Assembly: GCF_913063425.1 (NCBI RefSeq)
Contig: NZ_CAJXYK010000034.1
Location: 911 to 64,910, forward strand
Reading direction: 5' to 3'
DNA from: an uncultured Thiohalocapsa sp.
GTDB taxonomy: Bacteria > Pseudomonadota > Gammaproteobacteria > Chromatiales > Chromatiaceae
DNA length: 64,000 nt
Shown here: in pieces, positions 38,386 to 44,142 of the stretch
Layout of the letters: each line of letters opens with the position of its first letter
Position numbering within the stretch: position 1 is the stretch's first letter
Made by a program: the position numbers and the translations under genes
The notes under the pieces: model-generated
Database searches by the model: none
Seen by the model: the letters and a program-made list of their open reading frames with translations, nothing else
What the model was told of the DNA's origin: nothing

Positions 38386-41016
38386 ATGGCGAAGAAGCAC
38401 AAGAAGCGGTCCGGTCGCGGCACCCCGAAGTCCGCGCAGCAGGCCCAGCAGGCGAGCCCGGAGGTCCGCGCGCGTGCGGCGCAGGACGCGCTGGCGCAGG
38501 GCCGGTTCCGCGATGCCGTCGGCGGTTTCAAGGCGCTGCTCAAGGAGGATGCGGCCAGCGAGCACACCCCGGCGCGCCGCCTCGCCCTCGCCGAGGCCTA
38601 TGCCGGCCGCGCGCGGGAGTTGACTGCCAAGGGCATGCACAAAGAGGCGCTCGCCATCTGGGACAACCGGGCGGCCCTCGGCCCGGAGGTGCCGCCGGCA
38701 CCGGAGCACGCCGCGCTGAAGCTGCGCCTCGGCGACCCTGGGCCGCTGTTGGCGCTGTGGGCGCGCGCGGATGCGCTGCCCCGTGACGAGCGCGAGCAGA
38801 TCGGCACCTGGCTCGCCGCCGCCGCGCTGGCCGATGCCGCACCGGGGCTGCAAGGGCTTGCGGCAGACGACCCGCTGCGCCGCCACGCCGAGCCCGCGCG
38901 CGCTGCGCTCGACGCCTATTGCGCCGGGGACGACGCGGCCCTGGAGTCGGCGCTGGCGGGCATCCCATTCCGCTCACCCTACCGCGACCTCGCGCTGCTG
39001 CTGAAGGCGTTGAGCCGCCTCGAGGCCGAGCCGGCGACGAGCCGCGATCTGCTCGCGCGCATCGGCGCTGCGTCCGCCTTTGCGCCCCTGCGCCAGGCGG
39101 CCGAGGCGGCGCTGCTGTCGGATGCCGATTGCCTGGACGCGCTGCACCGGCTTGGCCCCCGCCAGGCGCAGCTGGCCGCCGCCCTGCGCGGCTGGTCCGC
39201 CGAGCAGCTCGCGTTGGCCCGGGAGGTCGCGGCCATGGACGCCCCGCTGGACGCGCCGGCGGACGCCGACGCCCGCAAGGCCCTGCTGCGGCTCCTGGAG
39301 CGTCACCGCGAGCTGCTCGGCCGCGATTGGGCCGCGCGAGCTGCCCGGCGGCTGTCGGCGTCGCTGCCCGGAGCCGGCGGCGGGCGGCATGCGCCGGCAT
39401 CGCGTGCACGGGATCTGATCGAAGACACGCTGTCCGAGGCGCTCGCCGCTGCGCATGCGGCGGAGGCCGACGGTCATCCCTGGAATGTCCTGAATGCCTG
39501 GGACGATGTCGCCGAGGTGCTGCGGGTGGCGGCGGAGGCCGAGCCGACGGACCCGGACCGGCCCGTGGCGATCGCGCTGGCGTTGCGCCGGGCCGATCAG
39601 TACTTCGACCTCCTCGGCGTGGATGTGCCCGATACGGAGCCGGACTCCGAGCAGTCTGTCGCCGCCGAGCAGCTCGCGCGCAGCCTGGAATGGGACCCGG
39701 AGCACCGGGACACCTATCTGCGCCTCATCGGCTGGTACCGCCGCGGCGCCCGACTCAAGGACGCGCGCCGGGTGCTGGCGGCGGCGCAGGCGCGCTGGCC
39801 GCGCGATATGGCCGTGCTGGAGGCGGCGCTCGACACCGCCCTGGCCGGGGACGCCTTCAAGAAGGCCGCCGGCATCGCCCGGCAGATGCTGGACATCGAC
39901 CCCATCAACAGCGGCGCGCGGCGGCGCCTGGTGGATGCCCACATCGCCCACGCCGCCAAGCAGCTCGGGAAGGATCGTCCCGACTTGGCAAGTAAAGAGC
40001 TGCATCAGGCACGGCAATGGACCCAGCGCGGCGCGGGCCTTCAGACCTTGCGCGAGCGTCTCGACTTCATGCAGGCGCTGGCGAGGCTGCACGTCGTCGG
40101 CGTCGATGCCGGCCGCAAGCGCGTGCAGGAGCTGCTGGAGCAGTGCGGCCCGGGGCCGGTGGCGCAGCTGGAGCTGGCCCTTGCCGCCGAGCTGCTACTC
40201 TTCGATCAGGTCAAGCTCTTCGAATTACTCGATCTGCCCAAGGTCAAGCTGCAGGCCCCGGGCGATCTCAGACTCATCCTCACCCGACTGCGGGAATTCG
40301 CGGAGCGGCGCAAGCGCTACGCGGTGAGCCTGGTCGATTGGCTGAAGACCCTGCTGCAGGGGGCGCCCTGGAAGCAACTGGACGCCGAGGCGCTGGAGCT
40401 CGCCTGCGAGACCCTGCGGCGGATGCGCCTGAGCGCGCCGCGCCGGGAGGCCGCCGGTGCGGCGCTGAAGTGCTGGGCGGGAACGCCCGCGTTCGTCTTT
40501 CATGCGCTGGAGAGCAAATACGACGAGTCCGGGAGCCCGGGGGCGGCCGACCGCGTCAAGCTGGAGCAGGCCCTGGAGCGCGCCGAGCGCGACGGCGATG
40601 CGCGCACCGTCAGCCGGCTGCTGTCGCTGCGGGAGACATTCTGGCCCTTCAGTGGCTTCCCGCCGTCGGGCTTCGATCACCTGCTGGATGACGCGGGCGA
40701 TGACGAGCCGTTCGACCTGCCTGACCCCCGGCTCGATCCAGGCGCCGATGAGGTTGCAGCGAACCTGCTGGACAAGCTCGATCGCCTGCCGTTGCGCCAG
40801 GCGCTGGAGGCCTGCGGGATTCCCAAGTCCCTGCGCAAGCGATTGTTGAAGCTCGCCCGTGACGAGGGCGAAGCCTTTGTCAGAGAGCAGCTCAAGCAAC
40901 TGTTGCGCGACACCGAGGCGAGCTTCCACGCCGAAGACGCACCGACCGAAGCGCGCGGCCGCCGCAGTGGGCGTCAACCAGACGACGACCATCCCGAGCA
41001 ACTGGATCTCTTTTGA
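38386..41016 (+). CDS. Large TPR/alpha-helical protein ending in QLDLF
   Basis: Basic N-terminus MAKKHKKR, TPR-like helical repeats, C-terminal EQLDLF-stop. Confidence 0.8.
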   Translation: MAKKHKKRSGRGTPKSAQQAQQASPEVRARAAQDALAQGRFRDAVGGFKALLKEDAASEHTPARRLALAEAYAGRARELTAKGMHKEALAIWDNRAALGPEVPPAPEHAALKLRLGDPGPLLALWARADALPRDEREQIGTWLAAAALADAAPGLQGLAADDPLRRHAEPARAALDAYCAGDDAALESALAGIPFRSPYRDLALLLKALSRLEAEPATSRDLLARIGAASAFAPLRQAAEAALLSDADCLDALHRLGPRQAQLAAALRGWSAEQLALAREVAAMDAPLDAPADADARKALLRLLERHRELLGRDWAARAARRLSASLPGAGGGRHAPASRARDLIEDTLSEALAAAHAAEADGHPWNVLNAWDDVAEVLRVAAEAEPTDPDRPVAIALALRRADQYFDLLGVDVPDTEPDSEQSVAAEQLARSLEWDPEHRDTYLRLIGWYRRGARLKDARRVLAAAQARWPRDMAVLEAALDTALAGDAFKKAAGIARQMLDIDPINSGARRRLVDAHIAHAAKQLGKDRPDLASKELHQARQWTQRGAGLQTLRERLDFMQALARLHVVGVDAGRKRVQELLEQCGPGPVAQLELALAAELLLFDQVKLFELLDLPKVKLQAPGDLRLILTRLREFAERRKRYAVSLVDWLKTLLQGAPWKQLDAEALELACETLRRMRLSAPRREAAGAALKCWAGTPAFVFHALESKYDESGSPGAADRVKLEQALERAERDGDARTVSRLLSLRETFWPFSGFPPSGFDHLLDDAGDDEPFDLPDPRLDPGADEVAANLLDKLDRLPLRQALEACGIPKSLRKRLLKLARDEGEAFVREQLKQLLRDTEASFHAEDAPTEARGRRSGRQPDDDHPEQLDLF

Positions 41017-41375
41017 TGTCTGACCCCTATCTCACCCTCGGCGTGGCGCCAGGCGTGGACGACGCCGCCGTCGAGCAGGCCTACCGCAACGCCATCAAGC
41101 GCTGCCCGCCCGATCGGAACCCGGCCGCGTTCCAGGCCGTGCGCGCCGCCTACGAGCGCCTGCGTACCCGCCGCGACCGTGTCGCGTACGAGCTGTTCGA
41201 CGCCGAGCCGCCGGCACCGCTCGATCTGCTGCGCCGCGCCCTGACTGCCCCCGGTGCGGGGCCCGCTGCCGCGCCCAGTGCCGCGCCCAGTGCCGCGCCC
41301 AGTGCCGCCTCCGGTCCTGACCGCCGCCGCCCCGACCCTGACCTGCTGCGGGCGCTGCTGCGCGGGGAGGCGTAG
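41016..41375 (+). CDS. Small atypical J-domain protein
   Basis: DPYLTLGV...AYR...CPPDRNP..FQAVRAAYERL; PPD instead of HPD. Confidence 0.8.
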   Translation: MSDPYLTLGVAPGVDDAAVEQAYRNAIKRCPPDRNPAAFQAVRAAYERLRTRRDRVAYELFDAEPPAPLDLLRRALTAPGAGPAAAPSAAPSAAPSAASGPDRRRPDPDLLRALLRGEA

Positions 41376-43843: not shown

Positions 43844-44142
43844 TGGAGCGCTGCCCCAACTGCCGCGCCCGCACCGACGGCACCGACACCTGCCGGCGCT
43901 GCGGCATGGCGCTCGGGCTGCTTCAGGCCACCGAGCGCGCCGCCGAGCACTGGCTGCGCCTGGGCATCGCCCACCTCGCCGCGGGCGCGCCGCAGGCCGC
44001 CACCCGAGCACTCAACCGCTCCCTGGCACTGCGCCACGATCCCCTCGCCGAGGAGCTGCTGGAGCTGGCGCCGGGGCTCGTGCGGCAGTTGCCGGGCGCA
44101 GCCGCCGCATCCGGATCGCCCGACGGCTCCCGCGAAACCTGA
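43843..44142 (+). CDS. Zn-ribbon + TPR small protein
   Basis: CPNC...CRRC followed by a helical TPR-like segment; TGATG overlap. Confidence 0.7.
   Translation: MERCPNCRARTDGTDTCRRCGMALGLLQATERAAEHWLRLGIAHLAAGAPQAATRALNRSLALRHDPLAEELLELAPGLVRQLPGAAAASGSPDGSRET

Follow-up and report, generated by a model that had tools for sequence, protein, structure and literature searches.

A five-gene Hsp70 operon in an uncultured Thiohalocapsa

The 64,000-nucleotide (nt) stretch of DNA from an uncultured Thiohalocapsa sp. that was analysed here, hereafter the window, carries five adjacent genes that together encode a dedicated Hsp70 machine. The genes, which we call A to E, specify a large protein with the features of a scaffold (A), a J-like protein (B), a GrpE-family protein (C), an Hsp70 (D) and a small Zn-ribbon protein (E) (Table 1). 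They are packed end to end. A and B share the letters TGATG at positions 41014-41018, the TAG stop codon of B is followed without a gap by the GTG start codon of C (41373-41378), and overlaps recur at the C/D junction (ATGA, 42080-42083) and at the D/E junction (TGATG, 43841-43845). Since every junction overlaps or abuts, the five genes are taken to be translationally coupled. The start of A was placed at the ATG at position 38386, because family alignments favour an N-terminus of the form M[AS]KK; on the same ground, an alternative TTG start at 38377 was disfavoured.

A preliminary description of this locus, made from the sequence letters, had listed the same five genes with the same coordinates and junctions, and the open reading frames (ORFs) and junction letters agree with it throughout. 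It had also regarded the genes as a self-contained, dedicated Hsp70 set distinct from the housekeeping one. That view is borne out by the missed equivalog cut-offs, by the J-domain-only architecture of B, which lacks the HPD (His-Pro-Asp) motif, and by the co-conservation of the genes, all described below. New here are the HscC-type insertions and deletions (indels) of D, the histidine-less, Djl-type J-domain of B, the system's own GrpE and the clamp-type tail of A.

Table 1. Positions of the operon genes and associated features in the window.
Feature	Positions	Strand	Description	Basis
Gene A	38386-41016	+	876 amino acids (aa) from ATG	ORF listing
Gene B	41016-41375	+	119 aa, J-like	Pfam DnaJ, E 5.5e-9, above cut-off
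Gene C	41376-42083	+	235 aa, GTG start, divergent GrpE	Pfam GrpE, E 2e-20
Gene D	42080-43843	+	587 aa, Hsp70	Pfam HSP70, E 5e-147
Gene E	43843-44142	+	99 aa, Zn-ribbon + TPR-like	Zn-ribbon and TPR matches sub-threshold only
argG/gene A divergent intergenic region	38199-38385	+	presumed operon promoter region	
C-terminal QLDLF-COOH of A, residues 872-876	40999-41013	+	clamp-binding consensus	predicted local distance difference test score (pLDDT) <50
PPD triad of B	41106-41114	+	at the canonical HPD position	translation
CPNC-x9-CRRC Zn ribbon of E	43852-43902	+		
tRNA-Glu(CUC)	45259-45333		flank of the operon	

The five genes are conserved as a unit

A profile built from an alignment of A was scanned against one genome per species, yielding 172 loci, 80 of which were analysed; at each of these, gene order was established by tblastn with the five window proteins. 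The order A-B-C-D-E was recovered in 59 of the 80 loci, all found via A alone, and 16 of the 21 others are interrupted by the end of a contig. Median gaps between the five genes range from -1 to 9 nt at the genome loci. Wherever the locus is complete, D is translationally coupled to a dedicated GrpE gene; E went undetected in two loci. The most distant homolog of A, from Halobeggiatoa (26% identity), stands alone. The pairwise distances among A sequences correlate with those among D sequences (r = 0.88). A is always the first gene and also the fastest-evolving, with 26-66% identity across the family against 59-82% for D. When 2025 ORFs from the flanks of these loci were clustered, no family recurred in more than 8 of the 80 loci, and hence no sixth gene belongs to the operon. 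This survey, which had been proposed in the preliminary description, confirms a five-gene co-conserved unit whose arrangement is far beyond chance.

The operon appears to be disrupted in one symbiont. At the locus of a Ca. Thiosymbion ectosymbiont of the nematode Catanema (L010), C is followed by an IS1-like ORF with a Zn-finger, InsA-like start (~13900-14700), and D and E are absent from the next 8.9 kb; in another Thiosymbion (L021) the operon is intact.

Most carriers belong to the Chromatiaceae or are other Gammaproteobacteria that oxidise sulfur. Nearly all sampled genera of the Chromatiaceae are represented (Halochromatium, Lamprobacter, Thiohalocapsa, Thiorhodococcus, Thiocystis, Thiocapsa, Allochromatium, Thiobaca, Lamprocystis, Thiodictyon, Thiococcus, Thiorhodovibrio and Ca. 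Thiosymbion), and further carriers are found among Ectothiorhodospiraceae, Thioalkalivibrio, Nitrococcus, Sedimenticola, Thiogranum and Granulosicoccaceae, together with one Accumulibacter and a few Halomonas. Sequences cluster by genus in a neighbour-joining (NJ) tree of D, where the window sequence is sister to the Halochromatium group. Halomonas sequences occupy two distinct positions within the Chromatiales radiation, a sign that the operon was transferred horizontally into Halomonas, the only such case in the tree. The operon is best read as chromosomal, lineage-specific and largely vertically inherited.

Seven neighbourhoods were inspected, and they consist mainly of housekeeping genes that differ by genus. 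They include sucABCD-lpd in Halomonas, argS and PhoU in Thiocapsa marina, cysS upstream and comEC, lolCD, rpsU and dnaG downstream in Thiorhodovibrio, and exbBD-msbA-lpxK-kdsB in another metagenome-assembled genome (MAG). The linkage to defence islands for which the preliminary description had advised looking is thus not seen in these seven neighbourhoods. In five Halochromatium/Lamprobacter loci (L002, L005, L006, L008 and L086), a protein of ~1150 aa with Amt-PAS-GGDEF-EAL architecture ends 4-80 nt upstream of A on the same strand, and in Thiocapsa a PAS-GGDEF-EAL gene lies nearby on the other strand. This adjacency may be due to chance, cyclic di-GMP genes being common.

Gene D encodes a probable HscC-type Hsp70

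D shares 42% identity with DnaK and 34% with HscC of Escherichia coli, and it stays below both NCBIfam DnaK equivalog cut-offs (PRK00290, 536.6 vs 648 bits; TIGR02350, 522.5 vs 822.55 bits). In NCBI annotation, the orthologs of the operon proteins go by the names 'Hsp70 family protein', 'J domain-containing protein', 'nucleotide exchange factor GrpE' and 'hypothetical protein'. The equivalents of the DnaK ATPase and allosteric residues K70, E171, D194, T199, D201, R167, N170 and T173 are kept in D, as is the VLVDVTP linker. The residues of the DnaK hydrophobic pocket (F426, V436 and M404) also have their equivalents in D; the loops and the arch around it are altered.

The indels of D relative to DnaK are those of HscC. 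With the same boundaries as in E. coli HscC, D shows a 24-aa deletion in lobe I of the nucleotide-binding domain (NBD; DnaK 77-100), a gap of 4 aa at DnaK 209-212, within the loop where the J-domain contact D211 lies, and a 19-aa deletion at the junction between the beta subdomain of the substrate-binding domain (SBD-beta) and the lid, where the lid begins. Both proteins carry an insertion in loop L1,2 of SBD-beta, of 4+4 extra residues in D and 4 in HscC. These indels belong to the features that Mayer 2021 lists as setting HscC apart; the NBD lobe I deletion (DnaK ~76-101) also occurs in non-proteobacterial DnaKs and does not mark HscC alone (PMC8215388). In D, the segment that HscA has lost is of unchanged length. 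In an NJ quartet built from 517 ungapped columns, with the indels excluded and one sequence per outgroup, D grouped with HscC against DnaK and HscA in 93 of 100 bootstraps, a result that is suggestive, since long-branch effects are possible. The C-terminus of D, L.DLIYYLE[ST], is conserved across the family. On these sequence features, D is probably an ATPase-competent Hsp70 of the HscC type rather than a heat-shock DnaK, and the system is probably related to HscC-DjlB/DjlC.

B and C: a J-domain without histidine and a divergent GrpE

B consists of a J-domain followed by a conserved C-terminal extension of ~50 aa, with no other domain. Its best E. coli matches are the N-terminal J-domain of DjlC (E 1.9e-5) and then DjlB (E 7e-4), and it shares with both of them a shortened loop between helices II and III as well as the xPE triad. 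HPE is a rare J-domain variant (~1%) and a hallmark of DjlB/DjlC (PMC10410713). Among 73 orthologs of B, the triad reads PPE in 44, PPD in 18, SPE in 6 and PAE in 5, with neither HPD nor HPE in any of them. B is probably a J-domain protein of the DjlB/DjlC type, and it has lost the histidine of HPD/HPE.

C falls far below all NCBIfam GrpE equivalog cut-offs. Its N-terminus (41376-41560 in the window) is strongly conserved among all 69 orthologs and comprises the segment MD..K..L..RFRAYLD, a variable acidic linker and an invariant PDLF(T/S)LL, which sits at the start of the long helix, where ordinary GrpE proteins are not conserved. C is the system's own, divergent GrpE. Judged by their sequences, D and B look like an HscC/Djl-type pair with two departures, namely the histidine-less J-domain and the dedicated GrpE.

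Gene A encodes a predicted solenoid with a clamp-type tail

No Pfam family covers A. Its family comprises 1731 clusters at E<=1e-3 among 1.84 billion representatives. The AlphaFold2 (AF2) model of A is an all-alpha, TPR-like solenoid with a pLDDT of 83.8, in which residues 1-13, 327-339, 756-784 and 849-876 have low confidence; these segments are predicted to be a disordered N-terminus, two internal loops and the tail. The N-terminus is basic (MAKKHKKRSGRG). A Foldseek search against the PDB returned only generic TPR scaffolds (IFT-A, TTC7, Ski3, Ctr9 and Naa15; TM about 0.2), proteins that hold multi-subunit complexes together.

The tail of A reads RGRRSGRQPDDDHPEQLDLF-COOH and closes with DDDHPEQLDLF-COOH, so that QLDLF is preceded by the acidic run DDDHPE and, further upstream, by the basic patch RGRRSGR. 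This ending recurs across the family: in 181 of 291 unique homologs of A (62%), the C-terminus is formed by [QN]xx[LMFI][FL] followed by no more than three residues, and 24 more end in xDLF. Where the tail stops precisely at [LMFI][FL], as it does in 125 homologs, 86% have Q at position -5, position -4 is L, F or M, position -3 is D or E in 83%, position -2 is L in 93% and position -1 is F in 98%; an acidic flank occupies positions -12 to -6, with a basic patch further upstream. The rate at which the strict motif appears within the bodies of these proteins predicts it in 0.2% of tails, and it was found in 0 of the 2025 flank ORFs. Its presence in the deepest branches of A (Sedimenticola, Accumulibacter, Granulosicoccaceae and Thiogranum) implies that the motif is ancestral.

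The consensus for binding to the beta sliding clamp is QL(S/D)LF, and QLDLF is the strongest-binding peptide; exchange of Q for N has modest effects, Asp is preferred at position 3, LF forms the anchor and the flanks are usually acidic (PMC11139829). The variants seen in the family (QFDLF, QLELF, QMDLF, QLNLF, QLSLF, QLGLF and NLDLF) all lie within the tolerance reported there. By every in-silico criterion, that is, by sequence, position, flank and hierarchy of conservation, A looks like a clamp client. A mimic of the SSB tail, which is similarly acidic and ends in F (DDDIPF-like), was also considered and set aside, as the Q-L-x-L-F register fits the clamp motif better.

Gene E encodes a small Zn-ribbon protein

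E combines an Arg-rich CPNC-x9-CRRC Zn ribbon with three TPR-like helices and a variable tail, and its AF2 model (pLDDT 86) likewise shows a Zn ribbon and three helices. Residues C4, C7, C17, C20, R3, R10, R18 and R19 are invariant in 32 homologs. The 111 homologs of E are all small (65-163 aa) and mostly unnamed or called 'hypothetical'. Foldseek against the PDB gave only non-significant TPR matches, with TPR2A of Hop at the top (E 0.68). An assignment of E as a TPR protein that binds Hsp70/Hsp90 tails was not adopted, since the top matches of that kind reach only E about 0.7, and they are not used as evidence here.

Promoter region, flanks and host

As the preliminary description had it, the operon sits between argG, which is on the minus strand, and the gene of an RRM_1 protein with the tRNA-Glu; pcnB and folK also belong to the flanks. 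It had found no sigma32 or CIRCE element, and the scans agree. No CIRCE element was found with up to 3 mismatches, and sigma32-like matches upstream of A occur at 17 of 76 loci against 17.05 in shuffled sequences, which is no enrichment. Sigma54-like promoters upstream of A were also no more frequent at these 76 loci than in shuffles, and the argG/A intergenic region of the window holds no standout match to a sigma70, sigma32 or sigma54 consensus. This region does contain a direct repeat, GAAGTGTG, in two copies 7 nt apart (~38236-38262), which may be a regulator site for argG or gene A; the repeat was not seen upstream of A in the closest relatives. The last ~17 nt before A (GGTTACCCTTGCCGCCC) are common to the window and its closest relative, L001.

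Between E and the RRM-protein gene lies a GC-rich stretch of 444 nt (44143-44586) with no credible ORF. It matches no Rfam family, and no terminator-like site follows E; the stretch may serve the RRM gene as a long 5' leader. ARAGORN called a 91-nt tRNA-Arg(gcg) on the minus strand at 46856-46946, inside the coding overlap of pcnB and folK. The Rfam tRNA model did not find it, and the call is most likely a false positive.

The window also encodes metA, an RND efflux system, two-component systems, argG, pcnB-folK-panBCD, draG and nifB. The pcnB-folK-panBCD genes are in E. coli order, and the region 50250-57667 encodes a DraG-like ADP-ribosylglycohydrolase, a flavodiiron protein and a NifB-like radical-SAM/FeMo-co protein. 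The host looks like a diazotrophic member of the Chromatiaceae close to Halochromatium. In the read archives, the window sequence was found in metagenome runs only, plus one weak metatranscriptome.

Comparison with known systems

The HscC system of E. coli resembles the present one in several respects. HscC and D have in common the four indels relative to DnaK (lobe I, D211 loop, L1,2 and lid) and are of similar length (556 against 587 aa), and the J-domain of B appears to be of the same subtype as those of DjlB and DjlC by its xPE triad, its short loop and its best BLAST match. The HscC system is, moreover, also specialised and not related to heat shock. At the hscC locus of E. coli K-12 (L089, 676000-684000) there are two Sel1(TPR-like)-DUF1266-Djl repeats, ybeQ-ybeR-djlB and ybeT-ybeU-djlC, and the DjlB and DjlC encoded there carry HPE together with the shortened J-domain loop. 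The comparison suggests that helical-repeat partners may be general to HscC-type systems.

The systems differ in other respects. The operon has its own GrpE, whereas HscC is without a GrpE signature and needs no exchange factor (PMC8215388). B is a soluble protein of 119 aa with Pro or Ser in place of His; DjlB and DjlC, in contrast, are tail-anchored membrane proteins of ~480 aa with HPE, and B lacks both their membrane anchor and their middle region. Where the HscC locus has DUF1266 genes, the operon has none, and it encodes instead the 876-aa solenoid with its clamp-motif tail and the Zn-ribbon protein. No clamp-type C-terminus was found among the proteins of the E. coli HscC locus. The sequence of D is also more DnaK-like than HscC-like by the identities given above. 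As two HscC features, GrpE independence and a membrane-anchored J-protein with HPE, are absent here, the system is not filed as HscC proper.

With the canonical DnaK-DnaJ-GrpE set the operon shares three protein families and presumably the same ATPase cycle. It departs from that set in B, which is without the HPD motif, the G/F region, the Zn finger and the C-terminal domains of the class A architecture, and further in its scores below the equivalog cut-offs, the lack of a heat-shock promoter signal and the HscC-type indels; its TPR and Zn-ribbon partners are obligatory. Cyanobacterial DnaK1-DnaJ3-GrpE and MxDnaK2-GrpS of Myxococcus are non-essential, specialised Hsp70s that, like D, have an adjacent GrpE of their own. 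The cyanobacterial system has a TPR-bearing J partner, and these systems are targeted to one machine (PilB/Hfq) and not to unfolded proteins generally. The distinction from them is drawn on gene architecture, neighbourhood and lineage: there, TPR and J are fused in one protein that retains HPD, near pilBTC, whereas no pil genes occur in the window or at the inspected loci.

A functional analogue is offered by clathrin heavy chain with auxilin, Hsc70 and Hsp110, in which a solenoid has a Q-L-x-L-x tail, a J-protein recruits Hsp70 and an exchange factor recycles it (PMC2830701). That system is eukaryotic and non-homologous, and the clathrin motif lies ~35 residues from the end, unlike the motif of A, which stands at the very C-terminus with an acidic flank. 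Known clamp clients, namely Pol II (QLGLF), Pol IV (QLVLGL), Pol III alpha, UmuC (QLNLF) and Hda, share with A the consensus, the disordered terminus and the acidic flank (PMC11139829); none of the known ones is a chaperone scaffold, however, and A lacks a polymerase, nuclease or AAA+ domain. Operons that bring Hsp70 and GrpE together with J- or TPR-bearing partners also occur in predicted conflict systems, namely the GAP1-N2 GTPase systems (Kaur et al., PMC7159879) and CoCoNuT with its CnuD (PMC11090510). Those systems, known mostly from Actinobacteria and Firmicutes, are built around a GTPase or McrBC with effectors and often have degenerate Hsp70s; the present operon has neither a GTPase nor an effector, nor does it lie in a defence neighbourhood. 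A literature search retrieved no description of this operon or of any clamp-linked Hsp70/DnaK system. The preliminary description had matched the genes to no named system; this holds for the operon as a whole and has to be qualified for D and B, given their likeness to HscC and to DjlB/DjlC.

Proposed mechanism

We tentatively favour, as the best reading of the operon, an HscC-type Hsp70 remodelling module that would be organised by A and docked on DNA-loaded clamps. The clamp tether itself, through the QLDLF end of A, is suggested by the tail sequences and is at most as probable as that reading, perhaps slightly less so. Somewhat more doubtful is the fuller proposal that this would be the first Hsp70 machine physically tethered to the replication sliding clamp, acting on proteins at forks or on post-replicative clamps by stripping or remodelling them.

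In such a machine, A would be the organising scaffold or adaptor that assembles B, D and E. The DLIYYLE[ST] tail of D might sit in a TPR groove of A or E, by analogy with the EEVD tails on Hop and CHIP, while the flexible acidic tail of A with QLDLF-COOH would anchor the complete machine to beta sliding clamps loaded on DNA. Contact with DNA may be made by the basic N-terminus and the basic tail patch of A, together with the Arg-rich Zn ribbon of E. D would bind its client in the ATP state, B would act as the trigger and C would exchange the nucleotide, and this Hsp70 cycle would remodel proteins that sit at clamps or replication forks, or strip them off. DnaK, DnaJ and GrpE remodel replication complexes, among them lambda P-DnaB and those of plasmid Rep proteins. 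The role proposed here would be the chromosomal counterpart of their action on lambda O-P-DnaB and on plasmid Rep proteins. Deletion of HscC in E. coli leads to sensitivity to UV and Cd2+ (PMC8215388), and the UV sensitivity of hscC mutants is compatible with a DNA-related role for this class of Hsp70.

Several observations weigh against this proposal. Control of replication or repair was among the roles offered in the preliminary description, and the clamp-motif tail of A adds an argument for it, but the clustering of flank ORFs revealed no replication or repair gene that is consistently linked to the operon. The HscC-type assignment draws on the indels and on a single HscC sequence, and, unlike HscC, the system employs a GrpE. 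The J-domain histidine is generally needed for stimulating the Hsp70 ATPase, and with a histidine-less B the Hsp70 cycle may differ from the one proposed. The PDLF of C could be a pseudo-substrate for the same site as the tail of A.

The distribution of the motif also tells against the tether. It is missing from 18 of the 72 genome loci with a complete A, and about 18-28% of genome loci are truly without it, with the rest of the operon kept. In five of these 18 loci (L010, L020, L034, L051 and L056), an acidic stretch with QxDLF is encoded out of frame or behind a stop just upstream of B, and the A that was called there ends early, in the basic patch; such out-of-frame tails could reflect sequencing or assembly frameshifts in MAGs, or real decay. 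Thiocapsa (with a ...KRKRR end), Allochromatium palmeri and two Halomonas are truly without the motif, ending in basic or other tails, and retain the operon, so the motif is not indispensable. Nor was a second clamp-type motif, one that might compensate for a motif-less A, found in the orthologs of B, C, D or E.

Alternative explanations

The same tail may have another purpose. A could be a dedicated client, and QLDLF the handle by which D grips it, in a closed assembly/disassembly or switch system modelled on clathrin-auxilin-Hsc70 and IscU-HscB-HscA; A-bound B would then trigger hydrolysis, the PDLF of C would be a pseudo-substrate that aids release, and the resemblance to clamp motifs would be coincidental. 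We consider this, the main rival reading, unlikely overall, while recognising that two of the arguments for it count directly against a clamp tether: in clathrin, the Hsc70 site QLMLT lies on a flexible C-terminal tail of an alpha-solenoid and the J-protein is needed (PMC2830701), and the GrpE of the present system has an invariant PDLF after an acidic linker. The retention of the pocket residues of D with altered loops and arch would suit a private specificity, and the place of A as the gene that is always first and fastest-evolving also counts in favour of this reading. The basic patch upstream of the hydrophobic end, furthermore, resembles DnaK-type binding sites as defined by rules that reportedly go back to Rudiger in 1997. 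Against a handle, however, speaks the composition of the motif. Gln at -5, Asp or Glu at -3, an acidic flank and a strictly C-terminal position are what selection by a clamp pocket would produce, whereas canonical Hsp70 grooves disfavour acidic residues and need residues on either side of a central Leu. The motif also equals the universal consensus and not an idiosyncratic one. The lineages without the tail keep the other four genes and the PDLF of their GrpE, which is harder to understand if the tail is the sole handle; its loss with all else kept comes more easily for a localisation signal. The identity with the consensus, the Gln and Asp residues, the C-terminal position and the pattern of tail loss lead us to rank the clamp tether above the handle, although the two are not mutually exclusive.

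Other roles appear much less probable. Anti-phage defence, for which the preliminary description had also argued, would have the Hsp70 machine sense or remodel phage replication proteins, possibly at the clamp, as a defence or abortive-infection system. It could draw on the Hsp70/GrpE/J-TPR modules of the predicted conflict systems cited above (GAP1-N2 GTPase, PMC7159879; CoCoNuT CnuD, PMC11090510), on the patchy occurrence in Halomonas with its two separate acquisitions, on an SNF2 helicase downstream of the operon in Thiocapsa marina and a RelB/ParE pair upstream of it in one Halomonas, and on the dependence of phages on the clamp and DnaK. Yet PADLOC, which had been suggested as a check, gave no significant match for any of the five proteins, the only hit being a weak one of C to PDC-S40 (E 0.015); a scan with the A profile found no relative of A in 2.9 million viral contigs; and domain and fold searches revealed no effector domain (nuclease, TIR, pore or protease). 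The neighbours are core metabolic and informational genes that differ by genus, the operon is found in nearly every sampled genus of the Chromatiaceae with a genus-congruent tree, and D is under strong purifying selection, as its identities across the family show. Because the system is lineage-wide and genus-congruent, in a housekeeping setting and without an effector, we rate defence as very improbable, and the distribution data do not support calling it a new defence system. No more probable is a second, stress-type general chaperone set, responding to salt, light or sulfide, with A and E as mere co-chaperones. The intact catalytic residues, linker and substrate-binding fold of D and its GrpE partner would allow for it, and DnaK paralogues are common in bacteria with complex proteomes (PMC11019930). 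Such a set is, however, at odds with the lack of a sigma32 or CIRCE signal, with a J-protein that has neither client-binding domains nor HPD, with the altered substrate-binding loops and shortened lid of D, and with an obligatory scaffold of 876 aa whose specific terminal motif argues for one dedicated task. The least probable role is that of a motility or polysaccharide-secretion chaperone acting on type IV pilus motors or other envelope machines. It is brought to mind by DnaK1-DnaJ3(TPR)-GrpE and MxDnaK2(SglK)-GrpS, which have been studied best among the bacterial Hsp70 sets that possess a TPR partner and a GrpE of their own (PMC12288463, PMC11019930), but no pil or polysaccharide gene is consistently adjacent to the operon in the window or at the inspected loci, and TPR and J are separate genes here, in the opposite order.

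Implications

The operon represents a compact, strongly co-conserved, five-part version of what is probably an HscC-type system, with its own exchange factor, scaffold and accessory protein, and the whole system could therefore be reconstituted from five genes. It raises the question of whether a J-domain without the 'invariant' histidine, as in 73 of 73 orthologs, can drive an Hsp70, and that of what a dedicated GrpE adds to an HscC-type motor. If the proposed recruitment to the clamp is true, an Hsp70 would add protein remodelling to the 'tool-belt' of the sliding clamp and link chaperones to replication and repair. The machine would then correspond, in bacteria, to the chromatin segregases, and might account for the UV phenotype long known from hscC mutants.

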